Source: Candidatus Altiarchaeota archaeon (GTDB lineage: Archaea > Altiarchaeota > Altiarchaeia > IMC4 > SCGC-AAA252-I15). Taken from it: a DNA stretch of 64,000 bases. Positions within the stretch are counted from its first letter, which is position 1, and every line of letters begins with the position of its first letter. A model generated the notes under the pieces. The model did no database searches, was not told the origin of the DNA, and saw nothing but the letters and a program-made list of their open reading frames with translations. The stretch covers positions 226,438-290,437 of the forward strand of contig JAZDNF010000001.1 in the NCBI GenBank assembly GCA_043800255.1, in the 5' to 3' direction. Shown one piece after another: positions 2 through 23,575 of this stretch. Made by a program: the position numbers and the translations under genes.

Positions 2-997
2 CAGATACAACATTGCCTTGTCGTTCCGTTCCTGCTCTCCCTTCTCAAGTTCTCTTGACCCCCAGTCTATGTCCTGCTGGGGTGATACCCATTCGCCGGA
101 TTCGAAGGTTGCCGCCAGCTCGAGAGGTTCGATTCTGTCTCCTGTTCCAACTTCGGGGGCCTGTTTTTCCGCGTTCATGGTTTTCCTGATGTACTCCAGC
201 AGCTCGGATGTCTTCCTGGCGTCTGAGGCGTCCAGCTTTTTTATCCTGTCCTTAAGCTCTCCTTTACTGCCTGCTGATAGCAGGTCAACCGTCTGCTTGA
301 TTCCTCTTTCGCACTCGTCTGCCATATTGTGCGATGATCCGACCACTATCTCAAAGTGCCTGCCGGGCGTCGGCCCAATATGCACTATCTTCTCCTCGTC
401 CGGGATGATGATTCCTGATTTCATGTCTCCTGATGTCACTGCCATCTGTATGGCCAGCTTGTCTCTGATGCCCTTCAGCCTTTCCACCGCCTCGCTTGTG
501 AGGCTTTCATCCTCTCTCGTTTTGAGCATGAAGAGGTTGCCATGCGCCGACCTGGCGACATACAGTGAGTCGTTGTCGCTCCATGCTAGTTTCATGGGGT
601 TGGTGTACTCTACAGCCTTCATGGCTGTGATCTCCCGGGGGTACACCTCGTCAGGGTCGTACACGTGGGTGGCGTCATGCGTCACATCAGACTCGGACAC
701 TTTCCCGAAGAAGTCCTTTTGGTACTTGTACGCTTGCGGGACTCTCTTGACGTTGAGCTTTTTCAGACCCTCAGCAGTCTGCGTCACGATAATCCCCTCA
801 TCAGGGATTTCAAGTTTCTTCAAGTCTTTCCCAACATCCTCTGAACCGGTGACCTCCCATACGCCTGGGAACCTGTCATTATCCCAGAGCATCTTAACGG
901 TTTCATCTTCTCTGAAGTATTTTGTCAGCTCCTTCTCCTCGAGCCCCTTATCGGTCCGCCTTATGAGGTAGCTTTTGCCTTCCTTTAATCTCACCAT
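2..997 (-). CDS. hypothetical protein, 3'-partial (runs off the window edge)
   Basis: Not in the ORF track. Manual translation from the ATG at 997 (MVRLKEGKSYLIRRTDKGLEEKEL...) stays open to the window start, and the ATG is 4 nt after the stop of the upstream gene. The + strand ORF 18..971 is its shadow. Confidence 0.8.
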   Translation of the reverse strand, partial: MVRLKEGKSYLIRRTDKGLEEKELTKYFREDETVKMLWDNDRFPGVWEVTGSEDVGKDLKKLEIPDEGIIVTQTAEGLKKLNVKRVPQAYKYQKDFFGKVSESDVTHDATHVYDPDEVYPREITAMKAVEYTNPMKLAWSDNDSLYVARSAHGNLFMLKTREDESLTSEAVERLKGIRDKLAIQMAVTSGDMKSGIIIPDEEKIVHIGPTPGRHFEIVVGSSHNMADECERGIKQTVDLLSAGSKGELKDRIKKLDASDARKTSELLEYIRKTMNAEKQAPEVGTGDRIEPLELAATFESGEWVSPQQDIDWGSRELEKGEQERNDKAMLYL

Positions 998-5826: not shown

Positions 5827-6978
5827 TCAGCCCAGCGGTATGCTTATCAGATTCCAGCCGAGCGTTAGTGGCACTGTCAGGGTCTGAGAGTCTGAGGGTA
5901 TGAAGGCGTAGACCGTACTGCCGCCTGCGATGTAAATGATGCCGTCGGCAATGGCGGGGGATGTGCCCACACTGCCCGAGGTCGTATAGCTCCAGAGGAG
6001 CCCGCCGGTGCTTGCATTCAGCACATATACTATATCATCATTAGAGCCTGTGAAGACCATGCCGCCTGCGATGGCAGGGGAAGACTCCATCCAATCTCCT
6101 GTGGTGTAGTTCCATATGTGTTCGCCGGTGCTCGCATTCAAGGCGTAAGTCTTATTGTCCCGTGAGCCGACGTAGACCATGCCATATGCGACAGCTGGAG
6201 TGGATGATATACTCTCACCTGTGGTGTAGTTCCATATGTGTTCGCCGGTGCTGGCATTCAACGCATGGACTCTGAAGTCATGGGAGCTGAAGAAGACCCT
6301 GCCTTCGGAAACCGTAGGGGAAGAGTATACGGAGTTCCCAATACTATAGTTCCACATGTGTCCGCCGTCGCTGGCATTCAAAGCATAGACGGTAGGGCCT
6401 GTATTGCCTATGAAAAGGACGCCGTTAACAACGGCGGGCGGGGAAGTCACGCGCACCAAAGCACTATAATTCCAAACATGCGTGCCAGTGGTAGCGTTCA
6501 AGGCATAGAGCTTGGAATTGTACCAGGAGCCCACATATACGAAACCGTTGGCAGCGGTGGGCGGGCCCATATCGTCCCCCACAGTATAATTCCAAAGCGC
6601 CTCGCCGGTGCTAGCATTCAAGGCAAAGGTTATATTATTTTCCGAGCTGGCGTAGACCACGCCGCCAACAACAGCGGGGGAAGCGTCAACAGAATCTCCT
6701 GCAGTATAATTCCAGACTTGCAACCCTGTGCCGGCATTCAACGCATAAAGTCTGTTATCATTGGAGCCTATGAAGACCACGCCGCCAACAACCGCCGGCG
6801 AAGAGCTGACCCAACCTCCAGTAGGATAACTCCAGCTTAATGCGAATGCCGTGGCATTAATCTGGTCGCCCGAATAGCCGGTGTGGTTCAAGTCGTGCAT
6901 GAACATCGGCCAGTCGGAAGCGTAAACGGTGCCGGAGAACAAGAACAAAAGCCCTGCTAGAGCCGACCAAGCTCTCAT
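5827..6978 (-). CDS. secreted PQQ-like (BamB-type) beta-propeller protein with C-terminal GWNLISIPLG
   Basis: Signal peptide, WPMF..D..HTG start, and about 8 repeats of SSPAV..G.V..GS.D..YALNA.TG...WNY. Confidence 0.9.
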   Translation of the reverse strand: MRAWSALAGLLFLFSGTVYASDWPMFMHDLNHTGYSGDQINATAFALSWSYPTGGWVSSSPAVVGGVVFIGSNDNRLYALNAGTGLQVWNYTAGDSVDASPAVVGGVVYASSENNITFALNASTGEALWNYTVGDDMGPPTAANGFVYVGSWYNSKLYALNATTGTHVWNYSALVRVTSPPAVVNGVLFIGNTGPTVYALNASDGGHMWNYSIGNSVYSSPTVSEGRVFFSSHDFRVHALNASTGEHIWNYTTGESISSTPAVAYGMVYVGSRDNKTYALNASTGEHIWNYTTGDWMESSPAIAGGMVFTGSNDDIVYVLNASTGGLLWSYTTSGSVGTSPAIADGIIYIAGGSTVYAFIPSDSQTLTVPLTLGWNLISIPLG

Positions 6979-7009
6979 AATTGAATATACGATACAGTAT
7001 AAAAGAACA

Positions 7010-7444
7010 TCAGCCCAGCGGCATGCTGACGAGGTTCCAGCCTATTGTGAGGGAGATTCCGAGGTCAGTTGAGCTTGGGTTGTCGTATGCTGTTATGCCT
7101 CCTTCATACGACTCGAAGGCTCCCTCCGGGACTAGGTACACCTCTTGGCTGTCCTCCTCGCCAATACCGCCTATCTCCTCAGAGTATATGTTAGCTTGCA
7201 GCCGGTATCCTCCTTCACTGTTGCTAACTGCTGATGTATGTGAGCTGGCTGTTATTCCCGCATCGGTGCCGTTCTCACCTGTTTGTGCCGAACCAGTTGT
7301 CGGCGTTACGAGGTTGGCATCATACTCTGATTCACTGCCGAAGTAACCTGCTACTCTCTTAGCTATGCCAGTCTGCACGATAAGGGCGAGCGTGAGGGCT
7401 GTTATCAGCAGCAGGTATGCTTTCTCCTTCTTTCTGCTGTCCAT
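7010..7444 (-). CDS. small secreted/anchored protein with C-terminal GWNLVSMPLG
   Basis: N-terminal basic plus hydrophobic segment, Gly/Ser/Thr/acidic body, and the shared terminal motif. Confidence 0.75.
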   Translation of the reverse strand: MDSRKKEKAYLLLITALTLALIVQTGIAKRVAGYFGSESEYDANLVTPTTGSAQTGENGTDAGITASSHTSAVSNSEGGYRLQANIYSEEIGGIGEEDSQEVYLVPEGAFESYEGGITAYDNPSSTDLGISLTIGWNLVSMPLG

Positions 7445-7447
7445 CGT

Positions 7448-8995
7448 TTATACGGTGAACATTATTATGTCGCCCGCGGGGTTGTTGTCTCCGTAGGTTA
7501 CGTCTGCGGCAGCGTATGCTGTCGAGTTCGTGTCAATCTCCACTTTGAGCCTATACCTAGTGTCCTCCCTCAGTTTCAGCTCTTTCGTCGCTCCCAGCGC
7601 GAAATTGAACACGCCGCTGCTTATCGAATTGTTGTAAGTGTTCTGCCACAGTTGTGTGCCGCTTGAGGACAGGACTGTAACCTGTATGCTACCGTTCTGG
7701 ACTGCAGTCCCAGTTGCTGATTCAGTGAGCTTGCCCTGAACTGTCAGCACGACAGGCTGGGCATTGTACATGCTGCTGTATATTCTGTGCGTTTCCCTGT
7801 TCGCCAGGCTGCTGACACCATAGTAGACATCGAGGTTGGATCCTGACAGGAGCGCGCCGAGGGCTATGTCCGACACCCCATCATCGTTGAGGTCGCCTGT
7901 CGAGTCAACAGCATAGTTAATCTGCGTATGGTCAAACGTAACATCGCTCGTTCCATCAAACGACGAGCTTCCGTAGTATACGTACGCGTCGACTGCGGTC
8001 GATCCGACTGTCACAATCAGGTCGTCTATGCCGTCGCCGTTGACGTCTCCTCCGTTGGACAGGGCCTCCCCATAGTAGTTGTCCGAATGGTCGGATATTG
8101 TAAGGTCGCTTGTTCCGTCTAATGCCGTTCCTCCATAATAGACATAGACCAGCCCCGGGTTCCTTATGGTGGACGACCCTATGACGAGGTCGTCTGCGCT
8201 GTCGTCGTTGAGGTCGCCTCCGCATGCTATGGACTTCCCGAAGTATGATGTTGCCGTGTGGTCTGTGATGTTGACATCGCTTACGTTGTCAAATGATGAG
8301 CCGCCGTAGTAGACGTATGCTTTCTTGTCGTTGTAGGAGCCTACAGCGAGGTCGTCCGATCCATCGGAATTTAGGTCGCAGCACGCCTGCGCCCAGCCGA
8401 AGTATCTTTCACTGACGTGCTCGTCTACTGTCACATCCACTGTAGAATCAAGTGTCGAATTCCCATAGTAGATGTACGTCTTGTTGTCGTAGAATGCTGC
8501 TCCAAGCGCTAAGTCCTTGTAACCATCGTTGTTGAGGTCGCATACTGATATGCTGTATATGTTGTTCGGTGCGGTAATGGTTAAGTCGCTTGCAGTGTCA
8601 AATTCTGGGTTTCCGAGATACACATACGTCCTGTTCGATGTTGATGCGACAACCGCAAGATCGTCTATGCCGTCGCCATTGAGGTCTCCGACCCCTACAG
8701 CGTATCCGAAGTACGCCTGGTCTGTGTGGTCTGATATGATAGCGTCTGAGCTGTTGTCAAAGTCGGCACCTCCGTAGTATACTAAGACGGTCCTGTTAGG
8801 ATACGCCGCGCCAACTACCAGGTCTTTTATACCGTCGCCGTTCAAATCGCCTCTAGTGTTCACCGACTCCGGGTCTGAAGCGAAGCCGCTCCGTCCGGGA
8901 GTTATTATGACATCCCGTGCGGGATCCAGTTGCAGGGCAATAACGCAAAAACCTGTTAGCAGAAGTCCGAGTGTAATAAGGAGTTCCTTTTTCAT
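7448..8995 (-). CDS. secreted FG-GAP (integrin-alpha-like) repeat protein with extra C-terminal domain
   Basis: Seven GDLN.DG..DL.VG Ca-binding repeats and a signal peptide. Confidence 0.9.
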   Translation of the reverse strand: MKKELLITLGLLLTGFCVIALQLDPARDVIITPGRSGFASDPESVNTRGDLNGDGIKDLVVGAAYPNRTVLVYYGGADFDNSSDAIISDHTDQAYFGYAVGVGDLNGDGIDDLAVVASTSNRTYVYLGNPEFDTASDLTITAPNNIYSISVCDLNNDGYKDLALGAAFYDNKTYIYYGNSTLDSTVDVTVDEHVSERYFGWAQACCDLNSDGSDDLAVGSYNDKKAYVYYGGSSFDNVSDVNITDHTATSYFGKSIACGGDLNDDSADDLVIGSSTIRNPGLVYVYYGGTALDGTSDLTISDHSDNYYGEALSNGGDVNGDGIDDLIVTVGSTAVDAYVYYGSSSFDGTSDVTFDHTQINYAVDSTGDLNDDGVSDIALGALLSGSNLDVYYGVSSLANRETHRIYSSMYNAQPVVLTVQGKLTESATGTAVQNGSIQVTVLSSSGTQLWQNTYNNSISSGVFNFALGATKELKLREDTRYRLKVEIDTNSTAYAAADVTYGDNNPAGDIIMFTV

Positions 8996-9140
8996 CTTGA
9001 TTAGATATTGTTACCGCTATTTATATCATCTAATCCTCTCCTACTGACGTTCCTAGTTTGACTGGCTTTCTCAGACGAGCTGATAATCTCCCAGTACATA
9101 CCTCGTATGTTCAAATCCATTCGGGGCTTTAAACTTTTTC

Positions 9141-12100
9141 CTAAAAAACTAATGGAATAGATACCAAGTTCCAACCTATAACTAACGTAATGGTTGATGA
9201 AGTGGTAGTCGTTGACTCGCCATAAATTCCAATCGCATAAATCTTATTATCATCTGAACCGATGTAAACAACACCGTTATAGACTGCGGGTGGAGCATAT
9301 ATGTTCCCCCCTGCCGTGTAATTCCATATGTGTTCTCCATCAGACGCATTCAGGGCATAAATATTATTGCCCCCCGATCCGATATACACGACACCATTAG
9401 ATACTGCAGGGGAGGATAATATGGAATTCCCCATTGTGTAATTCCATATGTGTGCTCTAGCGCTGACGTTCAACGCATAAAATCTAGTATCCCATGAGCC
9501 CACATATAAAATATCATTAACAACTGCGGGGGAAGAGGATATGTCATCACCGGTTGTGTAATTCCATATATGCTCACCGGTGGATGCGTTCAATGCGTAA
9601 ACCTTGTCGTCATATGAACCAAGATATACTACTCCATTCAAAACTGCGGGAGACGAGTCTACCAGATGGCCTGTTGTGTAATTCCATATCAATGTTCCAT
9701 CAGAGATATTTATGGCATAAACCTTATGATCTTGAGAACCAACGTACAGAACACCATTCGAAATCGCAGGAGAAGAGTCTACTTCATTCCCCACAGTATA
9801 GTTCCACATATGCGCTCCACTGGAAGCATTCAAGGCATAAATATTATCGTCCCGTGAACCAATGCATACAACATCACTAGCAACTGCTGGAGAAGAGAGT
9901 ATCAGACCACCAGTTGTGTAGTTCCATATCTGTGCCCCGTTGGATGCATTCAAGGCGTAAGTTTTATTATCACTTGAACCGATGTAAACCACACCATTTG
10001 CAACCGCGGGGGAGGAATATACAGAGCCACCAGTTGTGTAATTCCATCTAAGCGCTCCATTAGAAGCATTAAATGCGTAGACCTTACTATCGCCTGAACC
10101 AATGTAAAGTGTACCATTTACAACAGCAGGGGAAGATCGTACAATACCGCCAGTCGTATAATTCCAAAGCAGTGTTCTATTCAGGACTACGGGGCTCGTT
10201 GTATACCCACTGTGGTTCAGATCATGCCTGAACATCGACCAGTCGTCAATTGCGACTGTAGTAGTGGTTGTAGTAGTTGTTGTGGTTGTCGAGGTGGTCG
10301 TCGTAGTTGTAGTAGTGGTGGTAGTAGTTGTTGTCGTTGTTGTGATTCCAGAACTGAAACAATAGACCTTATTGTCGTTAGAGCCCACGACTACCATACC
10401 TCCTGCAACAGAAGGCGATGAGTATATAAGCCCACTGGTAGTGTAGTTCCAAATGTGAATTCCGTTACTTGAATTCAATGCATAAAAACTGTAATCCTCA
10501 GAGCCTATCAATACAAGATTATCAACAACTGCTGGCGAAGAAAACACTTCGTATAATGTAGTGTAATTCCAAATTTCCTGGCCAGAACTAATATTGAGTG
10601 CATAGACCTTATTATCATATGATCCTACAAAGACTCTATCACCATAGATGGCTGGCGAAGAGGATATATAATTCCTAGTAGTATAGTTCCACAAGTGTTC
10701 GCCAGTGCTTGCATTAAGAGCATAAGTCTTGTTGTTCGTGGAGCCAACAAAGACCATTCCATTAGAAACTGCTGGTGAGGAGTATATGTCTGCTCCGGTA
10801 CTGTAATTCCAAATCTTAGCGCCGTTGCTGGCATTCAATGCATACACATTGTCATCATATGACCCAAAAAAAACCACATTGTTTACCACAGCAGGCGACG
10901 AATATATAAAATTTCCAGTACTATAGTTCCAGATTTTTGAGCCATTGCTCACATTCAAGGCATACATGTTACCGTCTCTGGAGCCGAAGAAGACCTCATT
11001 GTTTACCACAGCAGGCGATGAGAATACGCTATCACCTGTACTATAGCTCCACATAATTGCACCATTGCTGGCATTTATTGCATACGTCCTATTATCCCAG
11101 GAACCAACAAAGACTATACCGCCATAGACTGTGGGCGAAGAGAATACATTATCGCCTGTGGTAAAATTCCAGATTTCTTGGCCAGTACTAATATTGAGTG
11201 CATAGACCTTATGGTCATATGATCCCACAAAGACCACTCCGTTTGACACTGTAGGTGAAGAGTATACGTCGTCCCCAGTAGTATAGCTCCAGTTGAGAGT
11301 CAATCCGCTTGCATTAAACTGGCTTGTTGAATATCCCGTATGGCTCAAATCAGCACGAAACATCGGCCAAGCATTGTCATGGCTTACATAAACCACGCCC
11401 GCAGAATAATTTCTTACAGTAGTCAAACCGTCATAAACTTCACACCACAGGTAATATGATCTCCCACCTGACCAGAGACTTGTATCGCAAGTCTCATTTC
11501 CATCGTTTGCTGTATTTTCAAAGCATTTGTAAGTTTGGTCGAAGCTTGAATTGTCCTCATCAGCATAGCAACTTACCCTCAGCGTCTGTACATCAGGGTC
11601 TGATGCATTCCAACTCGCTTGAAATGACGAGTCAGATGTCATATTGCTAAAGTTGGGCTGTGATATCCCGATTGTCGGAATTTCGTTCGGCCCGAACGCG
11701 TATAGTTTGCGGTCGCTGTCCATAGATCCGAAGAAGAGCATACCATTTGCTATCGCCGGGGAGGAGAGTATTCGTCCTCCTGTGGTGTAGTTCCAGACTA
11801 ATGCTCCTGTAGTGGCATTTAGCCCATAGGTTGTGTTATCCTCTGAGCCGACAAATACAACGCCGCTCGCTACGGCGGGGGATGAATAGTATATGTTATC
11901 TCTTGCCGTGTAATTCCATATGTGCGCTCCGGTAGATGCATTTAGTGCGTATATTTTATCATCCTCTGAGCCGACATAAATCATGCCGTAGGCGACGGCA
12001 GGTGATGAGGATACATCATATCCTGTTGTGTAGTTCCATACCTGCGCTCCAGAGGTCATATTGAATGCATACACGTTGAAATCGTTTCCTCCGAAGTATA

Positions 12101-12806
12101 CCAAACCATTTGAAACCGCTGGCGATGATACGATCCCACCATTAATTCCTGATGAGAAGTTCCACACATGAGCGCCTGTGCTCAAATCCAATGAGTAGAA
12201 TCTCTTGCCCAACTCCGAACCTATGAAGACCATACCCCCAGATAAAGCAGGAGATGATGCTATCCTACCCTCTGTGGTGTAGTTCCATATCTGGGTGCCA
12301 TTGTTGATCCATAATGAGTATGTGATGTTATCATATGATCCAATATAAAGTCTGCCATCTGAAACGGTTGGTGAGGACCATATTGAACTTCCTGTCGTGT
12401 AATTCCATATCTGCTCCCCTGTGCTTGAGTTGATGGCGAATATTAGGCCGTTTCCTGAACCAACATATACTACCTGTGTTGTGACAGTCGGTGATGATAC
12501 GATGCCTGATCCAAGGCTGGCATTCCACATCTGCCTCCCACTGGTTTCGTTGAGTGCGTATAGTTTACTGTCTTGTGAGCCGAAGTAGACAACCCCGTTC
12601 AATATCGCTGGTGAGGCGAATATGCCATCCCCTGCAGTATAAGTCCACTTTAAAGCTAAACTGCTGACATTAACAGTGGTTTCTGTCGTATATCCTGTGT
12701 GCTCTAAGTCATGGCGGAACATCTGCCAGTCTGCGGCAGAAGCCAATCCAGAGTATGAGAGCAATAATGCTAGGGTGAAAACGGTTTTACAACTCATGTT
12801 AGGCAA
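9141..12806 (-). CDS. large secreted protein with three PQQ-like beta-propellers, a Thr linker and C-terminal GWNLVSIPLVF
   Basis: Three W.MFR.DL.H(T/S)GY-started repeat blocks, an Ig-like spacer and a poly-Thr tract. Confidence 0.9.
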   Translation of the reverse strand: MPNMSCKTVFTLALLLSYSGLASAADWQMFRHDLEHTGYTTETTVNVSSLALKWTYTAGDGIFASPAILNGVVYFGSQDSKLYALNETSGRQMWNASLGSGIVSSPTVTTQVVYVGSGNGLIFAINSSTGEQIWNYTTGSSIWSSPTVSDGRLYIGSYDNITYSLWINNGTQIWNYTTEGRIASSPALSGGMVFIGSELGKRFYSLDLSTGAHVWNFSSGINGGIVSSPAVSNGLVYFGGNDFNVYAFNMTSGAQVWNYTTGYDVSSSPAVAYGMIYVGSEDDKIYALNASTGAHIWNYTARDNIYYSSPAVASGVVFVGSEDNTTYGLNATTGALVWNYTTGGRILSSPAIANGMLFFGSMDSDRKLYAFGPNEIPTIGISQPNFSNMTSDSSFQASWNASDPDVQTLRVSCYADEDNSSFDQTYKCFENTANDGNETCDTSLWSGGRSYYLWCEVYDGLTTVRNYSAGVVYVSHDNAWPMFRADLSHTGYSTSQFNASGLTLNWSYTTGDDVYSSPTVSNGVVFVGSYDHKVYALNISTGQEIWNFTTGDNVFSSPTVYGGIVFVGSWDNRTYAINASNGAIMWSYSTGDSVFSSPAVVNNEVFFGSRDGNMYALNVSNGSKIWNYSTGNFIYSSPAVVNNVVFFGSYDDNVYALNASNGAKIWNYSTGADIYSSPAVSNGMVFVGSTNNKTYALNASTGEHLWNYTTRNYISSSPAIYGDRVFVGSYDNKVYALNISSGQEIWNYTTLYEVFSSPAVVDNLVLIGSEDYSFYALNSSNGIHIWNYTTSGLIYSSPSVAGGMVVVGSNDNKVYCFSSGITTTTTTTTTTTTTTTTTSTTTTTTTTTTTVAIDDWSMFRHDLNHSGYTTSPVVLNRTLLWNYTTGGIVRSSPAVVNGTLYIGSGDSKVYAFNASNGALRWNYTTGGSVYSSPAVANGVVYIGSSDNKTYALNASNGAQIWNYTTGGLILSSPAVASDVVCIGSRDDNIYALNASSGAHMWNYTVGNEVDSSPAISNGVLYVGSQDHKVYAINISDGTLIWNYTTGHLVDSSPAVLNGVVYLGSYDDKVYALNASTGEHIWNYTTGDDISSSPAVVNDILYVGSWDTRFYALNVSARAHIWNYTMGNSILSSPAVSNGVVYIGSGGNNIYALNASDGEHIWNYTAGGNIYAPPAVYNGVVYIGSDDNKIYAIGIYGESTTTTSSTITLVIGWNLVSIPLVF
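10258..10345 (-). repeat. poly-Thr (ACN) low-complexity linker
   Basis: Run of about 29 Thr codons with one Ser. Confidence 0.8.
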
Positions 12807-12906
12807 TTAACAATGTGAACGGCATTAAAAATCAGCCAACATCCAGCTATATGGCAAAGGGTGGGGCGCAGCAGCGTCTTTATTGCGCCCTATCCTATAC
12901 TATCAT

Positions 12907-14241
12907 ATGCTGAGGAGGGCCAAGCACTTGAAGCCTGTCAAGGAGGCTGTGAAAGAGCTGGCAGACGATGAAATTCTGAAGAGCACAGACCTTCCTAAGG
13001 TAAGAGACGCCCGCAGGATGCTTGAACTCGAGCTGGACATAAACGCAGCAGGCCTGATTGAAGTCATAGGAGAGCACCCTGACAGGGCGTTGAGAAAATA
13101 CTTCCATCAGGTGAAGAACAAGTGCGAGAAACAGCACAGGGGGGTTGAGGGTGCGGATGGGCTGGTGACTGAGAAGTTGATGCTTGGCACCCTGAAGGTT
13201 GCGTCCAAGATAGCGCGGGACCAGGGTAAGGATGTGAAAGAAATGCTCTCTGATCAGGGAGTAGGGGGTCATGTAATCAACGTTAACGAGGTCCTCAAGT
13301 TCATAGAACAGAGCATAAACGCTCCTGTCAGGGTCAAAACCGGCGACGAAGAAGAGAATCTGATGACAGCAAACGATCTAATCCTCGGCCACATGCTAAA
13401 TCACAAGAAGACATATGCCGTAAGGAAGGACAGGAACGGATACTATCTGGAGGAGAACTCCATTCGCGAGACGATGTACGATAAAGCCCTCAAAAGGCTT
13501 ACCTTAGAGAGGGACGCCAGCGCGTTAGGCATGTTCGAAGAGCACGTCAACGAGAGGATAAAGGAGTCGAGGGCCGCTGAACTGGACAGTTCAACTGATG
13601 AGTTTGTCCTGGGATTGCTGAAAGAGGCGAGAAAGAATTTCAGCCAACTCAGGGGAGACGACATAGGCTACATGAAGAAGGTGCTTGAGAAGAACGTCCT
13701 AGAGAGGATGGCGCAGGTCAGCACAGACAAGAAGGGCAACTACCACGGGCTGCTGACATCCGACTTGGGCAGGGAAGGCGGCGTCATCAACAACGCAGTA
13801 TTAGCGATTGCGAAGGTGATGCCACCTGTTTTCGTGTTCACATACGACTGGGAGAAGAACATGATGGAACTGAACGTGACAGACGGCAAGAGGCTGGCGA
13901 AGCCGTTCGGATACGTGCTAAACCCGACGGTCAGGGATACGCTGCTAAGGGAGTCGAATAAGGCCGGCATTGACATCATCAAGGCTGAAGGAGGGGACGT
14001 CGAGATTGGAGTCGCATCCGCAGGCATCATAGGCGTGGGAGTGTACAAGAGATTCGAAGGATATGAGAACATAACCTGGCTGCCGGAGCCTGAAGAGGCC
14101 GTCAGGTTAACTCTTGCAGGCATACTCTCAGACCAGGAGTCCGCCAAGAGGAAGAAGCTAGTGTTCATGCTCGCGAACGGTAACGTCACATCGTGCAACG
14201 TGGGCGACATCATCAAGAACATAGACCAGAGGAACAACTAA
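12907..14241 (+). CDS. hypothetical protein
   Basis: Long ORF with host-like codon usage, likely starting at the ATG at 12907. No confident family. Confidence 0.7.
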   Translation: MLRRAKHLKPVKEAVKELADDEILKSTDLPKVRDARRMLELELDINAAGLIEVIGEHPDRALRKYFHQVKNKCEKQHRGVEGADGLVTEKLMLGTLKVASKIARDQGKDVKEMLSDQGVGGHVINVNEVLKFIEQSINAPVRVKTGDEEENLMTANDLILGHMLNHKKTYAVRKDRNGYYLEENSIRETMYDKALKRLTLERDASALGMFEEHVNERIKESRAAELDSSTDEFVLGLLKEARKNFSQLRGDDIGYMKKVLEKNVLERMAQVSTDKKGNYHGLLTSDLGREGGVINNAVLAIAKVMPPVFVFTYDWEKNMMELNVTDGKRLAKPFGYVLNPTVRDTLLRESNKAGIDIIKAEGGDVEIGVASAGIIGVGVYKRFEGYENITWLPEPEEAVRLTLAGILSDQESAKRKKLVFMLANGNVTSCNVGDIIKNIDQRNN

Positions 14242-14250
14242 TCAGAGACG

Positions 14251-14490
14251 ATGAAAGAAGAAATCAAGTTCCTGTTCTGCCCAAACTGTCTGAGCAGGAA
14301 CGTCGGCTGGAACCTGTCCAAGGAATCCTACGCAGGAGGGAGGATATTCAACGAGAAAACCTGCAAAGCCTGCGGATTCAAAAGCCTGCTGTTCCCTGAG
14401 GTCACGGCGGAAGAATACACGAAAATCAAGCAGATGAAGGCTGCAGAAGAGGCAGACGCCGAGAAGCCGCACGCTATTCCCCCTGAATAG
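14251..14490 (+). CDS. small zinc-ribbon protein
   Basis: CPNC...CKACG motifs. Confidence 0.65.
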   Translation: MKEEIKFLFCPNCLSRNVGWNLSKESYAGGRIFNEKTCKACGFKSLLFPEVTAEEYTKIKQMKAAEEADAEKPHAIPPE

Positions 14491-14497
14491 TGCCGGA

Positions 14498-14959
14498 CTA
14501 TCCTAAATCCTTTCTGTACCTGACAATCCTCCTCGAGATCGGGAGCAGATTGTGCAATCTCTTGCCCTCTGCCAGCCCCACGCCGACGAAAAGGCCCTCT
14601 GATTTAATTATGACTATGCCCTCGCCCTGCTCACAGGAGATGCTGTCAGCGCCGTTAAAGAGTTCCAGAGCCTGAGGCCTGCTGACTTCTATAACCTGTT
14701 TTGCGGCGGTCTCGCCGATAAGCTGTGCGCCCTCGATTGTCGGCACAATCCCCCGCTCGTCTACTGTGACAAAGTGGAGGCCGACCCACTCAGCCCGCAC
14801 TTCAGGGAGGCTGCTGCCAGAGTAGAGGAATATCCTGTCAATGTTCCTCTTCTTCCTGTGCACGAGCACCCTATCCTCAGTAGAGAAGCTGCTCCCGAAG
14901 AAACTGTTAACGTCGTCCAAGACCCTTTGCCTCTCCTTTCCAACGCGTTCAATCCTCAT
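14498..14959 (-). CDS. NIP7/UPF0113-like PUA-domain RNA-binding protein (partner of RsmF/NOP2)
   Basis: GLHF...PTIEGAQLIG..A.KQVIE...GVG motif, coupled to the NOP2-family gene. Confidence 0.8.
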   Translation of the reverse strand: MRIERVGKERQRVLDDVNSFFGSSFSTEDRVLVHRKKRNIDRIFLYSGSSLPEVRAEWVGLHFVTVDERGIVPTIEGAQLIGETAAKQVIEVSRPQALELFNGADSISCEQGEGIVIIKSEGLFVGVGLAEGKRLHNLLPISRRIVRYRKDLG

Positions 14960-15848
14960 CCTTCACCACCTTCGCGATAAAGTATGAGTCGGCATCATTG
15001 TGCTGCGGCAGAATCCTGATACAGTCTCTGGCTTTCTCGGTCAGACCTGCCATGAACTCCAGTCCGGGCGGAGACTCCCTCACAAGATGCGCATCATCAT
15101 ATTTTAAGAGCAGATGCTCTATCACCTGCTCATTCTCCTCCAAAGAAGTCGTGCACGTCGAATAGACGAGCGATCCGCCCGGCTTAAGCATGCTGTAGGC
15201 GTCAACTATCATCCTCTTCTGGAGGCTGCTGAGACGCTTCACCCTCTCCAGGCTCCAGCGCCTCAAGGCGTCAGGATTCTTCCTCACGGTCCCAACGTCG
15301 CTGCAGGGCGCGTCCAACAGTATCCGGTCAAACTCCTGGCCCAGGCTGCTGTAGCGGCAGCCATCGCTTTTGGTGACTATCGCATTACGGACGCCGCAAC
15401 GCTGGAGGTTGTAGACTAGAGCCCGGATTCGCGAGAAGTTAGGCTCGTTGGCTACCAGCAGACCGCGGTTCTTCATCAGAGCAGCCAGGTGTGTGGTCTT
15501 GCTGCCAGGTGCTGCGCACAGGTCCAGAACGCGGTCCCCATCCGCAGGGCTGAGGACTACCGGAGGCACCATCGACATCGGCGTCTGGATGTAGTAGAAG
15601 CCGAGCTGATGTTCCATGGTATTGAGGCCGCCCTCTCCAACCCAGAGGCAGTCATCGCACCATTGCATGCCGGCATATTCTATCCTATGCTCCTTGAGAG
15701 CCTTCTTCACGAAGCTCATCTCGCATTTGAGGGTGTTCACCCTCAAAGACCATCTGTTGTAATGCATCTGGATGTGACTGATGAAGCTATCGTACTCCCT
15801 CCCCAGCAGCCTCTCATGGTATCTGAGAAACTCATCAGGCAATCTCAT
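14949..15848 (-). CDS. RsmB/NOL1/NOP2 family RNA cytosine-C5 methyltransferase
   Basis: VLDLCAAPGSKT, ILLDAPCS and LVYSTCT motifs. Confidence 0.95.
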   Translation of the reverse strand: MRLPDEFLRYHERLLGREYDSFISHIQMHYNRWSLRVNTLKCEMSFVKKALKEHRIEYAGMQWCDDCLWVGEGGLNTMEHQLGFYYIQTPMSMVPPVVLSPADGDRVLDLCAAPGSKTTHLAALMKNRGLLVANEPNFSRIRALVYNLQRCGVRNAIVTKSDGCRYSSLGQEFDRILLDAPCSDVGTVRKNPDALRRWSLERVKRLSSLQKRMIVDAYSMLKPGGSLVYSTCTTSLEENEQVIEHLLLKYDDAHLVRESPPGLEFMAGLTEKARDCIRILPQHNDADSYFIAKVVKDED

Positions 15849-16090
15849 GGAGCATCCCACCTGAACCCACAATCATGAACCACGGCAAGATCCTTCTCGC
15901 ACCTTGGGAACTTCCTGCACTGGAGCGGTCTTATAACATATACTCTGCACTTCTCCCTGCCGGAGAGGAACAAACATCTTATGGGAAGCTTACAGCATGC
16001 TGCGCCGCAGGCTTCTGGCGTGCACTCTCCTCTCCGGTTAGCCTGCACTGGCAGAAACGACTCTAAAAGGCGCCTGATTTTTTCAAGCAT
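15845..16090 (-). CDS. YkgJ-like cysteine-cluster protein
   Basis: C..CGAACC...C.FL...C.VY..RP.QCRKFP. Confidence 0.8.
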   Translation of the reverse strand: MLEKIRRLLESFLPVQANRRGECTPEACGAACCKLPIRCLFLSGREKCRVYVIRPLQCRKFPRCEKDLAVVHDCGFRWDAP

Positions 16091-16117
16091 AAATAACTTT
16101 GTGCAAAATGTCTTATA

Positions 16118-16747
16118 ATGAGGATGCCTTTTGTCACCGAGGGCCTGATAGTCGGCGTAGGGCTGATACTGACCGGGAGCGCGCTGTATGCCTACGATAA
16201 AATGTCAATAATGCTTATCGCGGCTGGCGCCTTCACATTGTACTTCTTCAGGGATCCTGAGCGTACCGTCCCATCCGGGGAGGATGCTATCGTCTCCCCA
16301 GCTGATGGAACGATTGACAGAGTTCAGAACCTAATTGAGCCGTCTTTTGTCGGCTCCAAAGGGAAGATGATAAGCATAGTGCTCTCGCCGTTCGACGTCC
16401 ACGTGAACAGGATGCCGGTCGACGGCACTGTGAAAAAAATAGAAAGGGAGAGCGGCTCCAAGCTGCCGGCAAAATGGGACAAAGCTTTCGACCATAACGA
16501 GCGGAACCATATAATGATTCAGGGTGGCATCCCCGTAGTAGTGACCCAGATAACCGGAATATTCGCCCGCAGGATAGTCTGCTGGGTCCGTGAGGGCGAC
16601 CGATTAAAGCGGGGGCAGCGGCTTGGCATGATACGATTCGGCTCGAGGACTAACATAGTTTTGCCTGAGAACGTGAAAGTCTCGGTGAGAAGAGGCGACA
16701 GGGTGAGGGGGGGCGAGACTATAATAGCAAGAATCATAAAATCATAA
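16118..16747 (+). CDS. psd: phosphatidylserine (archaetidylserine) decarboxylase proenzyme
   Basis: FFRDPER, SPADG, DVHVNR.P, NER and the FGS pyruvoyl cleavage site. Confidence 0.93.
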   Translation: MRMPFVTEGLIVGVGLILTGSALYAYDKMSIMLIAAGAFTLYFFRDPERTVPSGEDAIVSPADGTIDRVQNLIEPSFVGSKGKMISIVLSPFDVHVNRMPVDGTVKKIERESGSKLPAKWDKAFDHNERNHIMIQGGIPVVVTQITGIFARRIVCWVREGDRLKRGQRLGMIRFGSRTNIVLPENVKVSVRRGDRVRGGETIIARIIKS

Positions 16748-16751
16748 GAAG

Positions 16752-17426
16752 ATGAAACCCAAGAACATCCTCATGCAGATACCTGACCTCCTGACGCTGC
16801 TCAACCTGCTCATGGGATTCACAGCAATAGTGTTCATCCTCCAATCAGACCCAACTAAGGCGGCGTTGTCCATACTGCTGGCGGTGCTGCTGGACATATC
16901 AGACGGATTCTTCTCCCGCAGACTGAATACGAGCAGCAAATTCGGCCTGGAATTGGATTCATTAGCGGACATGGCGTCATTCGGAATAGCGCCTGGCATA
17001 ATAGCGTACACAGTATTCCTGAAGTCTTCCGGCGGTGTCATGCTGTCAGCACTCATCCCCCTTTGCAGTGCAATACGCCTCGCAAGGTATAATATAATAG
17101 ACGACAAGAATTCGTTCACAGGCCTTCCGACCCCCGCGATGGGAGGGTTCATAGCCTCGCTGGTTTTGACAGGCATTACCGTCCAAACCTACCATGTCGC
17201 AATATGGGTTGTGCTCCTGTGCGCTCTCATGGTGAGCGAGATCCCATTCCACAGGTACAGGCGACTCCCGACCAAGAGATTTTCGAAACCCCTCCTGCTG
17301 CTTCTATTGAGCCTGATACCCCCCTTCTTCGACATCAGGCTCATCATCGTGCCATTCCTCACGTATATCATCCTCGGAGTGGTTACTCATTTCTGGAGGA
17401 TTGCGCAGACCAGGAGCAAATCCTGA
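16752..17426 (+). CDS. pssA: CDP-alcohol phosphatidyltransferase, (archaetidyl/phosphatidyl)serine synthase
   Basis: D..DG..(S)R...S.FG.ELDSLAD motif plus RLARYN and FTGLPTP. Adjacent to psd. Confidence 0.92.
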   Translation: MKPKNILMQIPDLLTLLNLLMGFTAIVFILQSDPTKAALSILLAVLLDISDGFFSRRLNTSSKFGLELDSLADMASFGIAPGIIAYTVFLKSSGGVMLSALIPLCSAIRLARYNIIDDKNSFTGLPTPAMGGFIASLVLTGITVQTYHVAIWVVLLCALMVSEIPFHRYRRLPTKRFSKPLLLLLLSLIPPFFDIRLIIVPFLTYIILGVVTHFWRIAQTRSKS

Positions 17427-17442
17427 AAGACAATACCCCAGC

Positions 17443-19251
17443 TCAGTCCAGTGGTATGCTTATAAGATTCCAGCCGAGGGTGAGGGCTACTCCAACGGTT
17501 GACGAGAGGCTCTCTCCCCCTATCGTGTAAGTACTGAAGTGGCTCACATTCGCCCACACGAAATCGCCAGAGGCGTTCACATCGGTAGCATACACCCACG
17601 CCATAGAAGACGCGTTCAACCTCTGCCAATCTGAGAGACTAGTGTTAAACCAGTACATTGCCAGCGTCGACTCGTTCAGATTGCTGGCGTTCAGCTCCTC
17701 AGCAGTATAGTACATCTGAATGACAGTCGAATTCAGATTCTCCGCGAGAGACTGGCTCACAGTGATTTCCAAGTACCTGCCTAAGGAAGGTACAACGAAG
17801 GAAGAATTCGTCGGATTCCCAGAATACGAAGTAACGTTCACATCAGCATCGACTAGGGTAGTATTCGTCACAATAACCAACGTAGCATTCACAGTCGATG
17901 CGTTAATAACGGTAGTATTAAAGGCGGTAAAATTCTCAGTCCAATTATAATTGATAACCTCAATAGTCGACGTGGAAGTAGACGAAGAAGTTGTGGAAGT
18001 CGACGTTGAAGTTGTGGACGTGGAACTTGAAGTAGACGTTGACGTGGACGTTGAAGTGCTGATACTGGTTGTTGTAGACGTGCTGGTAGATGTCGTTGAT
18101 GTCGACGTGGTAGGTGTTACAGAAATCCTATGATAGTACAGTCCAGACCCCCGCGTCCAAGCGATTGGTACATAATCTGAACTCGCATTAACCTTTTTTG
18201 GAAAAACAGGATAACGGCAATCACCACTATTGTCCACTATCACCCTATCTCCCCAAGACGTTGTATTCGAGCTGAAACGCCTGTAAGTCAGGGCATTAAA
18301 CCCCGAATCCTGTCTCAAATATGCTGCGAAAACATCAGACCCGTAGGACGTAATGCTAACCAGTCCGGCATCGCTCACGTCATCGACCGTCACCGGCGCC
18401 GACCAATTCGAATCCGATTTCTTCTTGTAAGCATGGCGCAGCCTATCCTCTCCAGTATCCTCCCAGTACACGACATGAACGTTCCCATCATCAGTTTGGG
18501 TGACAGAGAAAACGCGGGTCAGCCAATTCGATGTCTCCAAACCCAGCTCAAAATCGGCATCCTCCACAAACGTCGAGCCATTCCAACCATAAAAGGAAAG
18601 GCTGTTCTCTCCTGCTGTAAGCTCCCATATGAGGGCATAGGGTGTGTTATCAATCACAATGGCTCCGACCCTGTTGTTGGCGTTAATCCCGGATGCTAGA
18701 ACATCATAAGTCCAGGCATTCCCGTTATCGGCAGACAGATCATAGTACATGTTTGAGTTGCTATTCTCTCTCGTGAAAATCCACACGTTGCCTCCATGAG
18801 CCAAGACGGCAGCATCCGTGGTTGATGTGGAAAAATGGGCGAATGCATCATCATAAGCTGGGTCATAATCGCCTGCCTGAGTTGCGGACGAGTTTATCCT
18901 CTTGTAGGAATGCGCCCCGCCGGTTCCGCGCTGGCCAGTGTGTATGTTACCGTAAGCGTCTATGTCAAAGGAGTCGTGGTCGCCGACGTTGTAAAATCCT
19001 ATGGCAGTCCAATTATCGCCTCCATCGCTACTATAATGTGCGTCAGGGTCTGTTCCGGCATGGAATATCCACAGCTTATCATTCTCGTCTGCGGACATCA
19101 GCATCTTCCTCCTCGGAATCCCGAGCAACGAATCCTGGCCCATGCCTGAAGATGTCACAGTTACTATCTCCTGTGCGGGAATGTAGTTACTAGAAACTAT
19201 CAGGAACAGGACTATCAGAATCAATGTGACTCTAAATTTTCCCCCTACCAT
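17443..19251 (-). CDS. secreted BNR/Asp-box propeller-like protein with Ser/Thr linker and C-terminal GWNLISIPLD
   Basis: Signal peptide, S.D.G.(N/A)W Asp-boxes, an ST tract, and a domain ending in V.HFSTY.I (PGF-pre-PGF-like). Confidence 0.8.
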   Translation of the reverse strand: MVGGKFRVTLILIVLFLIVSSNYIPAQEIVTVTSSGMGQDSLLGIPRRKMLMSADENDKLWIFHAGTDPDAHYSSDGGDNWTAIGFYNVGDHDSFDIDAYGNIHTGQRGTGGAHSYKRINSSATQAGDYDPAYDDAFAHFSTSTTDAAVLAHGGNVWIFTRENSNSNMYYDLSADNGNAWTYDVLASGINANNRVGAIVIDNTPYALIWELTAGENSLSFYGWNGSTFVEDADFELGLETSNWLTRVFSVTQTDDGNVHVVYWEDTGEDRLRHAYKKKSDSNWSAPVTVDDVSDAGLVSITSYGSDVFAAYLRQDSGFNALTYRRFSSNTTSWGDRVIVDNSGDCRYPVFPKKVNASSDYVPIAWTRGSGLYYHRISVTPTTSTSTTSTSTSTTTSISTSTSTSTSTSSSTSTTSTSTSTTSSSTSTSTIEVINYNWTENFTAFNTTVINASTVNATLVIVTNTTLVDADVNVTSYSGNPTNSSFVVPSLGRYLEITVSQSLAENLNSTVIQMYYTAEELNASNLNESTLAMYWFNTSLSDWQRLNASSMAWVYATDVNASGDFVWANVSHFSTYTIGGESLSSTVGVALTLGWNLISIPLD

Positions 19252-19329
19252 ATTAACAATAAACTCCTCAACTTAAAGACAAACCCCCGCACCAACCTGC
19301 GCCAGATGCCAACAGTATATCCTATGGGA

Positions 19330-20781
19330 TCAGCCTAGCGGGATTGATATGAGATTCCAGCCGAGGAAGACGGTGAATGCGTAGTTTGTTGATTCAGGCA
19401 GGATCGTGATCTGAGTCGACATCGAACTTGATGATGCGTTGCCGAGGCTGTCATAGGCTGAGACGTTCACGATGTTGGCGACGGTCTGTGCGGAGGCGAT
19501 GGACGAAAAGTTGACGTAGACCAGATAGGAGCTGCCTGATGTGAGGTTCATGGAGGCGTTAACCCAGCTGACGAGCCTGTTCGAGTAGTTGATTGATGTG
19601 GGAGTCACGGAAGCGGAAGTGTAGTTCAAGTCGACGTCATAGTTGTCGGCTATGCTCAAGTTGGTGATGTTCGAGGAGCCGATGTTGGTGACGTTTATGA
19701 GGAACCGCGTTATGTTGCCCACTATGACTGCTTCCTCGTTCAAGAGGGTCTTGTTCACCGTGAACTGACAGCTGTTCGCGGCTGAAACCGTTAGAAGCTC
19801 GGTGTTCCAGTCCTGGAAGGCGCCTGAGCTGTTGTACAGTGTGAAGTTCAGGATGTGGTCGCCTACGGAAAGGCCGCTCGTGTTAAAGCTTATGTTCAAG
19901 ACGACCGTCGTCGGAGCGGAGGTGACGTTCTCCGTATGATTCCACCTATTGACGCCGTCCGCAAGTATCAGGATGTTGAAACTGTCGTTGTAGCCTGACG
20001 TCAGCGGAACATGCGCGTAGACTAGGGAGCCAGCTTCAACCTGGCTGTCGCTCAGGTTGATGACGCCCAACCCTGCTGTTGTGCCGTTTCCATCAGATGA
20101 TGAGGCGATGTTCAGATCGGCCCATTCGTCCCAGCGGGAGGTGTTGGCGTCGACCGTGTTCTGCGGGTAGCGGTAGTTGTCGGCGTCGACTCCGTCGTAT
20201 GTCTCGATCCTGAAGCCTATGGCGCTGCCCAATGCGACTGCCATGTCCCTGGCTTCGGAGGAGTTCAACGGCTTAGAGAACTCGTAAACGTACTGCCCTG
20301 AGGAGTAGCTGCTCGAGCCGTTCCCATGGGAGGTTCCATTACCATCTCCCACGTCGCGCACCCACCAGTCAGTGGGTGCGGAAGTTCCCCAGTAATCGTC
20401 GCCGTATTCACTGAAATAGTATCCGAATTCTGCGGCGTCCTCGCCGCCCAACGTCGCAGTGTGATCGTGCCCGTTGTCGAACATGAACACTGCATAGTCG
20501 GTTCCAACCTGCTGTGCGCTATCGTCTATGACAGCGGCCATGAACAGGTGAGTGTTGTTGTTCATTATGTACAACTCTCCGCTTATTGTGTTCGCAGGTG
20601 TTGTGAAGCCGTTGAGGGTTATGTTCATGCCGTTAGACCACTCTCCCGCGCCCAGGCTGCCGTCGATGGTGGGCGGGCTGGTCGTGTAAGACGAGTTAAG
20701 GAGAGCAACTGCGCTCACATCAGGCATGGTCGCATAAACGAAGACTAACACGACGATCAATGAGGGTATCCTGCTTTCCAT
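19330..20781 (-). CDS. secreted DOMON/CBM9-like plus Ig-like (DUF11-like) protein with C-terminal GWNLISIPLG
   Basis: PTIDG.L..GEW, YEFSKPL and V.KT...I.F.I.VTN.G motifs plus a signal peptide. Confidence 0.75.
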   Translation of the reverse strand: MESRIPSLIVVLVFVYATMPDVSAVALLNSSYTTSPPTIDGSLGAGEWSNGMNITLNGFTTPANTISGELYIMNNNTHLFMAAVIDDSAQQVGTDYAVFMFDNGHDHTATLGGEDAAEFGYYFSEYGDDYWGTSAPTDWWVRDVGDGNGTSHGNGSSSYSSGQYVYEFSKPLNSSEARDMAVALGSAIGFRIETYDGVDADNYRYPQNTVDANTSRWDEWADLNIASSSDGNGTTAGLGVINLSDSQVEAGSLVYAHVPLTSGYNDSFNILILADGVNRWNHTENVTSAPTTVVLNISFNTSGLSVGDHILNFTLYNSSGAFQDWNTELLTVSAANSCQFTVNKTLLNEEAVIVGNITRFLINVTNIGSSNITNLSIADNYDVDLNYTSASVTPTSINYSNRLVSWVNASMNLTSGSSYLVYVNFSSIASAQTVANIVNVSAYDSLGNASSSSMSTQITILPESTNYAFTVFLGWNLISIPLG

Positions 20782-22492: not shown

Positions 22493-23575
22493 TTGAAAGC
22501 ACTTGTGCAGGATGCACTTGAAAGGAATAGATATATGGGCATGGACGAATTTGATGAGTCCAATGAGATACGCATTGTTGTTCTCGGAGCCGGAGGCGGC
22601 GGCGGGAACACGATAAACCGACTTAGTAAGATACAGGTCACCGGGGCCGAGCTAGCTGCGGTTAACACGGACGCTCAGGACCTGAAAAAACTTGACGAGA
22701 ATATAACAAAAATTCTCATCGGCTCGAAGCTGACGAGGGGACTCGGTGCTGGAGGATTCCCTGAGATAGGGATGAAGGCTGCTGAGGCTAGCAAGAAAGA
22801 ACTGCTCGATTACCTAACCGGCGCTCATCTGATATTCCTTTGCGCCGGAATGGGAGGCGGAACAGGAACAGGCTCTGCGCCGGTTCTTGCGGAAATAGGA
22901 AAGGAGGCCGGAGCGATAGTGGTGTCCATCGTGACCTTCCCGTTCAAGCTTGAGCGCTCGAGAGCCGAGAAGGCGAGGGAGGGCATAAGCAGGCTCAGGA
23001 AGGCTGCTGACACGGTCATCGTAATAGACAATAACAAGCTTGTCGACTACGTTCCGAACCTGCCGATAGACCGGGCATTCCTCGTCGCCGACGAAGTCGT
23101 AACAAGGGCTGTCAAGGGTATAACAGAGACTATAAAGGCGCCATCGTTGATTAACCTGGACTTCGCTGACATAAAATCCATATTATGCGGAGGCAAAGTC
23201 TCCGTAATATGCGTCGGAGAAGGTTCAGGGCCTGATAAGGTGGAGGCTGCCGTCAAGAACACATTAGAGCATCCGCTGCTTGACGTGGACTACCGAGGAG
23301 CCAAGGGAGGCCTCATCCACATAACAGGCGGCCCGGACATGACGATAGGTGATGCGAACAGGATAGGCGAGCTGATAACCAACGAGTTCGACCCGAATGC
23401 CAACGTTATGTGGGGTGCGAGAGTCGACCCGCGCCTGCAAGACACATACGAGATCATAAGCATCGCTACAGGAGTGAAATCGCAGAACCTGCTCGGACCA
23501 TACGACAGAGAAAGGCTTGATGAACCCTATCTTTACACTCCAGAGTACTGTGAGCTGAAGATAAGGGACATATAA
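22493..23575 (+). CDS. ftsZ: cell division protein FtsZ (FtsZ2-like)
   Basis: GAGGGGGN, GGGTGTG tubulin signature and INLDFAD T7 loop. [10 protein letters not shown] and DYVPNLP resemble archaeal FtsZ2. Confidence 0.97.

Follow-up and report, generated by a model that had tools for sequence, protein, structure and literature searches.

A shared C-terminal hairpin tag on secreted proteins of an Altiarchaeota archaeon and its predicted docking onto a hairpin-less acceptor

Several described systems mark secreted proteins with a common element at the C-terminus. The archaeosortase signals PGF-CTERM and PEF-CTERM and the C-terminal domains (CTDs) of the type IX secretion system (T9SS) occupy the extreme C-terminus of signal-peptide proteins with unrelated bodies, and in the cohesin-dockerin system a range of secreted enzymes bind one shared partner through the same small module at their C-terminus. 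Here we describe a tag of ~17 residues with similar traits, which ends five secreted proteins (P0001 to P0005) encoded in a 64,000-nucleotide stretch of a Candidatus Altiarchaeota genome (G000:C8:226438-290437; the whole stretch is hereafter called the window), together with P0007, a small secreted protein encoded elsewhere in the genome. The tag is homologous to a beta-hairpin that the first domain of P0007 lacks, and we propose, with a probability of roughly 0.5, that the tagged proteins dock onto P0007 by supplying this hairpin in trans.

The tag differs from each of these systems. A dockerin, of ~70 aa, folds by itself, binds Ca and docks onto a complete cohesin, whereas the ~17-aa tag would be a missing piece of its partner's own fold; no Pfam dockerin or cohesin match was found on the tagged proteins or P0007. 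The CTDs of T9SS (family models TIGR04183 and PF18962) are beta-sandwiches of 80-100 aa, far longer than the tag, and no CTD match (NCBIfam, Pfam) was found on 21 tagged proteins. Unlike archaeosortase CTERM signals, the tag comes with no transmembrane (TM) helix, basic tail or sortase gene. SpyTag/SpyCatcher is an engineered split domain in which a strand-bearing peptide docks into the separately expressed remainder and is locked there by an isopeptide bond. As in that pair, a strand peptide and the rest of a domain would be made separately here, and the tag could be used on any cargo. However, the present split would be natural, and no covalent lock is indicated because the acceptor residue beside the tag Asn is not conserved; an isopeptide lock between this Asn and acceptor Lys77 was considered and rejected, as the acceptor position varies (K/R/N/Y in alignments A1 and A2).

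Donor-strand complementation is described for chaperone-usher pili and for archaeal threads, cannulae and Tat-dependent bundling pili (PMC9715654, 10.1101/2024.12.30.630787, PMC12337348). In those accounts, as in our proposal, a beta-sandwich domain that is missing part of its sheet is completed by another polypeptide, outside the cell and without ATP. However, the subunits of such filaments, as described there, are alike and both donate and accept, whereas here ~23 unrelated cargoes would donate a two-strand hairpin to one small accepting protein, with no polymer implied. P0007 has no free donor hairpin, its sole hairpin belonging to a complete second domain, and the cargoes have no open core, the exception being one 1707-aa protein with an internal complete copy. 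The accessible parts of the archaeal hami/cryo-EM and donor-strand complementation literature searched describe no cargo tag. Likewise, the motif GWNLIS appears in no paper among the accessible text searched, and mentions of GWNLI or GWNLV are unrelated by title and abstract. Strand complementation is known, but a shared terminal tag on unrelated cargoes, with a socket derived from domain fission, is to our knowledge undescribed.

The terminal tag and its homology to a tandem domain

Five minus-strand open reading frames (ORFs) of the window end in x-T-L-x-L-x-x-GWNL(I/V)S(I/M)PL followed by one or two residues (Table 1). These are exactly the five ends listed in an earlier sequence-only reading of the window, which had proposed a new sorting or docking tag. 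The back-translated motif GGNTGGAAYYTNRTNWSNNTNCC occurs five times in the window and in none of 100 dinucleotide shuffles. The five DNA copies vary synonymously (AAT/AAC, CTG/CTC/TTG/CTT, AGC/TCT/TCA, CCG/CCA/CCC), so the conservation lies at the protein level, as that reading had also held, and its N-terminal signal-like hydrophobic segments are indeed present in all five proteins. The stop codons are mixed (four TGA and one TAG), and either non-coding DNA or the start of the next gene comes after them; the tags are therefore true C-termini, and read-through or recoding of the stops was rejected on the same grounds.

The tag is much more widespread in the assembly as a whole (G000; 1.75 Mb, 17 contigs, 93% complete). 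A six-frame regular-expression search gave 21 motif copies, 20 of which stop 2-4 residues beyond the Pro, and a hidden Markov model (HMM) of the tails gave 23 terminal tags at a score of at least 11, plus one weak (23-24 in total). Internal matches at that score were confined to two proteins, P0007 and a 565-aa LTD protein, where they lie at the beginning of complete domains. The earlier reading had proposed to look for such a terminal bias and had remarked that GWNL-like strands also occur inside larger domains of other surface proteins. The tagged bodies are diverse, including C25, S8 and M6 peptidases, NosD/beta-helix, NHL, PQQ, LTD and Big/invasin-like proteins and several without a match, and the tag is also found on tiny domain-less proteins (P0002 and a 102-aa protein). 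Across 19/19 aligned tails on these unrelated bodies, the residues G, W, N, L, S and P never vary, which argues for a retained structural contact. Several tags are preceded by Ser/Thr-rich linkers, by the end of an LTD domain ('TPGxxN') or by a shared module ending in 'VWANVSHFSxYTI'. A signal-like N-terminal segment was recognized in 20 of 24 tagged proteins by a crude hydrophobicity test, which is weakly discriminating (300 of 821 long ORFs pass too), and in two more by eye; the other two are short fragments. Two short minus-strand ORFs carry a good tag but no start or signal peptide (G000:C7:200342-200467, 41 codons; G000:C7:252882-253214, 111 codons). The shorter one retains WANISHFSTYTV upstream of the tag, and both are probably remnants of tagged genes.

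The origin of the tag is indicated by the internal regular-expression match, which lies in the 565-aa LTD protein (G000:C5:37579-39276). At its C-terminus it has two copies of a ~90-aa domain in tandem, each of which opens with an x-T-I-x-x-x-x-GWNLIS-x-P hairpin and closes with GYWIKV...TL.V.G. A 498-aa paralogue runs in the same order from signal peptide through LTD domain to hairpin and ends two residues later. As the two proteins align collinearly up to the hairpin, the tag and the opening hairpin of this domain are homologous. Judging from this alignment, the tag represents the first hairpin (two strands, x-T-L-x-L-x-x and GWNLIS-x-P) of a ~165-aa C-terminal tandem domain. In an AlphaFold2 model of an intact tandem (predicted local distance difference test (pLDDT) 90.0; predicted template modelling score (pTM) 0.86), the homologous residues form strands 2-6 and 8-13, in agreement with the beta-hairpin that had been suggested for the tag. 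The tagged proteins cover only positions ~3-23 of the tandem-domain profile (profile A2); that is, they carry a domain fragment rather than a complete hairpin and core twice.

The tandem domain itself has no name. No Pfam or NCBIfam family was found for the tag or the domain when 21 tagged proteins, P0007 and full-domain relatives were scanned. Searches against the PDB gave a best E of 8.5e-3 with Foldseek, a best Z of 4.3 with a wide VIA-align search (cupin/jelly-roll-like rows only) and a best sequence E of 0.11 with profile A2. Profile A2 matched 30,101 representative clusters at E<=1e-3, 11,226 at 1e-10 and 834 at 1e-30, and its match ended no more than 12 residues from the protein C-terminus in 42 of the first 50 listed. 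Relative to this domain, the tag is homologous to hairpin 1 and P0007 to the remainder; typical members are whole, in cis, at the C-terminus, and the split is seen in a subset of Altiarchaeota alone. The complete tandem family (representatives P0015-P0163) has no counterpart in the searched copies of Pfam, NCBIfam and PDB and would deserve to be described as a family in its own right. Other forms of the domain were also observed. A related but distinct C-terminal module (L032-L036, L040; genomes G014-G019, G027) has GWNLIT(L/M)PGKG ~153 residues before the stop and a Cys-containing, non-tandem region downstream, and matches profile A2 weakly (E 1e-5 to 1e-8). In G005, two small proteins (L170, G005:C26; L171, G005:C1) combine an N-terminal hydrophobic helix segment (...AIIGLTIVMLAIYVV...) with a complete tandem, a membrane-anchored form of the domain.

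The hairpin-less protein P0007 and its predicted docking

The sequence-only reading had identified no receptor for the tag in the window. This holds for the window itself, and a candidate acceptor sits on another contig: beyond the 565-aa LTD protein, an HMM of the domain found one further carrier in G000, namely P0007. In alignment A2, mature P0007 begins at column 23 and the cargo tags finish at column 20-21; a cargo tail and mature P0007 therefore add up to one complete tandem, cut in the loop after hairpin 1. Compared with complete tandems, P0007 and its orthologues lack exactly hairpin 1 of domain 1. P0007 shares this layout, in which a signal peptide is followed by a core and a full domain, with five database homologues (together P0007-P0012, 42-80% identity), one of which is named Candidatus Altiarchaeota, and two more distant homologues retain the hairpin. 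The hairpin-less layout is also present in genomes G044, G045, G020, G023, G008 and G035, and the G046 copy is cut by a contig end. The separate hairpin-less layout is thus conserved in at least seven genomes.

Outside Altiarchaeota, only P0026, P0039 and P0057 among the best 150 profile matches start inside the domain, and all three were rejected as acceptors, since each lacks a signal peptide and seems to be an incomplete gene. An acceptor-like gene in G022 (L020, G022:C72, ~400-977, plus strand) reads hairpin (...FNILLEPGWN), in-frame TGA and then core, with no visible signal peptide; it may be a pseudogene, a fission intermediate or a sequencing error. In each of two genomes that differ strongly from each other (L127, G035:C8; L135, G008:C34), domain 2 of the acceptor is nearly identical to domain 2 of the adjacent LTD-tandem protein, a pattern that suggests that the 3' end of the neighbouring gene has undergone concerted evolution or gene conversion, or repeated local duplication.

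Co-folding placed the tag in the vacant slot of P0007. The input consisted of P0007 residues 22-179 (alignment A1) and the last 40 residues of P0001 (alignment A3), and the interaction prediction score from aligned errors (ipSAE) was 0.87, 0.87 and 0.86, against 0.03 for the best of three controls. Among 157 solved complexes, 116 attain the mark used for such scores, and among 215 mismatched pairs 2 do; these counts are only a rough guide here, where our own alignments were used. The runs agreed in at least 98% of contacts, with a partner pLDDT of 66-69. In the models, the tag strand GWNLIS is paired with residues 73-78 of the acceptor (GYWVKV), and the strand before it with residues 83-89, the last strand of domain 1; the predicted position is that of the cis hairpin in the intact domain. 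The acceptor reached a pLDDT of 90 with the tag versus 66-76 with unrelated partners. When P0007 was folded alone, its pLDDT was 76.2, and the signal peptide (<50) was not modelled into the hairpin slot. The co-fold, which the earlier reading had suggested making against candidate surface proteins, supports the compatibility of the tag with the P0007 slot and predicts binding.

We propose that a domain has been split. An ancestral tandem domain would have been divided so that each of ~23 Sec-exported cargoes keeps hairpin 1 at its extreme C-terminus, and the remainder (core 1, then hairpin 2 and core 2) would be made once, as the separate secreted protein P0007. After export, the cargo hairpin would insert into the vacant slot of P0007 domain 1 by donor-hairpin complementation. 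The tandem would thereby be rebuilt non-covalently, and many unrelated cargoes could dock onto one adaptor. The strand complementation put forward in the sequence-only reading thus gains computational support from the conserved hairpin-less acceptor and the co-fold, with binding itself at the level of prediction; our estimate for trans complementation on P0007 is about even.

The rebuilt domain may in turn attach to the cell envelope, possibly via C-terminally membrane-anchored proteins encoded beside P0007. The P0007 neighbourhood (G000:C5:34109-41066; L015 4109-11066) is a run of surface-protein genes, in the order 522-aa protein, 565-aa LTD-plus-tandem protein, 467-aa protein, P0007 and two small proteins with C-terminal TM helices. 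The 467-aa protein combines a CarboxypepD_reg-like domain with a C-terminal TM helix and a K-rich tail. G044 and G045 share this gene order, and G020 and G023 show it in part. An LTD-tandem gene lies near the P0007-type gene in G000, G044, G045, G046, G035 and G008, and in G000, G044, G045, G020 and G023 it is directly next to genes whose products have a signal peptide, a C-terminal TM helix and a basic tail. By their neighbourhood alone, these TM-anchored proteins are candidate binders of the rebuilt domain. In RNA run X1, eight contigs, all at least 99% alike, fell on a 470-aa TM-protein gene and the LTD-tandem gene (L015 6269-9077); none fell on the acceptor gene (L015 5526-6062), and such contigs cannot show absence of expression. 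A tentative extension, to which we give less credence than to docking as such, is a natural split-domain display, in which a clade-specific 17-aa hairpin plug on two dozen proteases, propellers and adhesin-like proteins fits a single secreted socket, P0007, held at the surface by the neighbouring membrane-anchored proteins of the cluster conserved in G000, G044, G045, G020 and G023.

Distribution of the tag and competing explanations

A DNA pattern for the tag matched 27 of the 61 genomes of the phylum, and the reversed-pattern control matched none. All 79 matches outside G000 were read, and those with a stop no more than six residues from the Pro were counted as terminal. Fifty are terminal, in 12 genomes of three families (f1, f2, f6), and 29 are internal. 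The terminal tags number ten in G005, seven each in G044 and G046, six in G045, five in G023, four each in G032 and G043, two each in G020 and G031, and one each in G029, G030 and G035. All 14 matches in the outgroups G001, G002, G007 and G052 are internal. Of these, 11 open a complete tandem and lie 143-157 residues ahead of the stop, in secreted proteins of up to 5,586 aa. The remaining three comprise one frame each in G002 and G007 that runs off the fetched stretch and a third match, also in G007, that stops 95 aa on. Since the outgroups carry the motif internally, mostly at the starts of complete protein-terminal tandems, the likely history is a fission of this domain that took place in only part of the phylum.

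A wider scan used the query 'tag + 3 residues + stop' on one genome each of 185,579 species and returned 34 stretches. Twenty-four of them are true terminal tags, all in archaeal records of metagenome-assembled or single-amplified genomes with the same tails, several of them titled Altiarchaeota. Five bacterial matches were rejected as apparent chance, with an upstream frame of at most 17 codons, and five others because the 'stop' was TGG and the domain continues (Thermoplasmatota, Methanomassiliicoccales, Methanobacteriota, Lentisphaeria, Bacteroidota). Among the species scanned, the terminal tag in this form is confined to a subset of Altiarchaeota.

Several observations weigh against docking onto P0007. 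A search with profile A2 (E<=0.05) turned up no hairpin-less acceptor in five tag-bearing genomes (G005, G032, G043, G030, G031), among them G005 (93% complete, 10 tags), G032 (91%, 4 tags) and G043 (57%). P0007 therefore cannot be the universal partner unless acceptors were missed. Conversely, G008 has an acceptor, yet no tag was found there by the queries used, so that the co-occurrence of tag and acceptor across genomes is good but imperfect. In G000, a single open socket gene faces ~23 cargo genes. P0007 has no membrane anchor, and docking to it does not alone explain localization. The co-fold may merely rebuild a fold known from intact domains, and even without a partner, domain 1 of P0007 is modelled with moderate confidence (block pLDDT 73-88).

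The genomes without a detected acceptor also speak for a first alternative, in which the hairpin docks in trans elsewhere, either by swapping into or adding onto complete tandem-domain surface proteins or by self-association of the tags, and ties the cargo to a surface lattice made of full-domain proteins. All full-length profile A2 matches read in G005, G032 and G043 are complete tandems, tandem proteins were also read in G030 and G031, and at least one full tandem is present in every tag-bearing genome examined. Furthermore, the tagged gene adjoins one for a 294-302-aa secreted full-tandem protein in G029, G030 and G031. However, a cis hairpin should out-compete a trans hairpin, and G000 has exactly one vacant core, whose break matches the tag within two residues. 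We consider this alternative unlikely.

It is similarly improbable, in our view, that the tag is a C-terminal sorting or processing signal for some machine (outer-layer export, cleavage, or lipid or glycan attachment) to which P0007 is unrelated. The tag is strictly terminal, on signal-peptide proteins, and stands where other archaeal surface proteins carry a CTERM signal. The C-terminal region of P0004 illustrates this: five homologues of this region all end in the tag, and a sixth, distant one (P0169) ends in a PGF-like motif, a hydrophobic TM helix and KRRK. However, the absence of a TM helix and basic tail, already reported for the five window tails, extends to the genome, where 20 of 21 regular-expression matches end 2-4 residues after the Pro and leave no helix-length hydrophobic run or K/R tail. 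No exosortase/archaeosortase gene was found in G000 (PF09721, no match at E<=0.01; the control was positive in M. jannaschii), TIGR04213 (PGF_pre_PGF) had no match in G000, and Pfam and NCBIfam scans matched the tag to no described CTERM family. In addition, intact domains share the invariant residues of the motif, and in these folded domains the homologous stretch is a structural hairpin.

That the tags are non-functional remnants of truncated C-terminal domains, as the two fragment-like ORFs (41 aa and 111 aa) might suggest, or tails that fold back on the last domain of their own protein, is the least probable explanation, given the invariant residues on unrelated bodies, the terminal position kept across three families, the Ser/Thr-rich or low-complexity linkers before the tag, its presence on tiny proteins that have no domain to fold onto, and a break point that is identical everywhere, which independent decay would not give.

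Tagged genes of the window and implications

The features discussed above are listed in Table 1. In Pfam and NCBIfam searches of the window proteins, P0001 and P0003 matched PQQ/BamB-type propellers and P0005 a DUF11 repeat; P0002 and P0004 had no match, and none of the five tails was covered by a family. Of the body types assigned in the sequence-only reading, the propellers were thus recovered, whereas 'BNR' for P0004 and 'DOMON/Ig' for P0005 were not.

Table 1 Features of the tagged genes in the window and of the candidate acceptor
Feature	Position	Strand	Description
P0001 gene, 383 aa	5827..6978	-	Signal peptide, PQQ-like beta-propeller, C-terminal hairpin tag
P0001 tag LTVPLTLGWNLISIPLG	5830..5880	-	Last 17 codons, then TGA; partner in the co-fold
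P0002 gene, 144 aa	7010..7444	-	Signal peptide, low-complexity body without family match, tag
P0002 tag LGISLTIGWNLVSMPLG	7013..7063	-	Then TGA
P0003 gene, 1221 aa	9141..12806	-	Signal peptide, three PQQ-type propeller regions with poly-Thr linker between, tag
P0003 tag STITLVIGWNLVSIPLVF	9144..9197	-	Then TAG
P0004 gene, 602 aa	17443..19251	-	Signal peptide, body without Pfam/NCBIfam match, Ser/Thr-rich linker, C-terminal module ending FVWANVSHFSTYTIGG, tag
P0004 tag VGVALTLGWNLISIPLD	17446..17496	-	Then TGA
P0005 gene, 483 aa	19330..20781	-	Signal peptide, body with DUF11 repeat, tag
P0005 tag YAFTVFLGWNLISIPLG	19333..19383	-	Then TGA
P0007, 179 aa	G000:C5:35526-36062 (outside the window)	-	Signal peptide ending VSA|QT, domain copy 1 starting after the hairpin, complete copy 2

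The Thr and Ser/Thr linkers are long and homopolymeric or nearly so, with ~28 Thr in P0003 and ~60 S/T in P0004. The tagged proteins have a very high density of N-x-S/T sequons along their whole length, which would fit surface proteins that carry heavy glycosylation. Between two of the tagged genes lies a gene for an untagged 515-aa FG-GAP repeat protein with a signal peptide (window 7448-8995, minus strand), ending in ...GDIIMFTV; not all secreted proteins of the cluster are therefore tagged. Housekeeping genes lie beside and between the tagged genes (window 14498-17426 and 22493-23575), encoding an RsmB/F-type methyltransferase with PUA protein, phosphatidylserine decarboxylase, CDP-alcohol phosphatidyltransferase and FtsZ, so the tagged genes form no dedicated island.

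If trans docking onto P0007 is correct, secreted proteins would be addressed or attached by a missing piece of their partner's fold, rather than by a sorting enzyme or an autonomous binding module, and engineering would gain a small docking pair of peptide and protein from nature. Should the display extension hold as well, the supply of one small adaptor would set the surface attachment of the whole exoproteome, and plug and socket would form a natural, non-covalent equivalent of SpyTag/SpyCatcher, ready for use as an orthogonal pair. Trans docking would also open a first functional approach to a very large unnamed family of C-terminal domains, and would begin to explain how the surface proteome is organized in Altiarchaeota, here without an archaeosortase.

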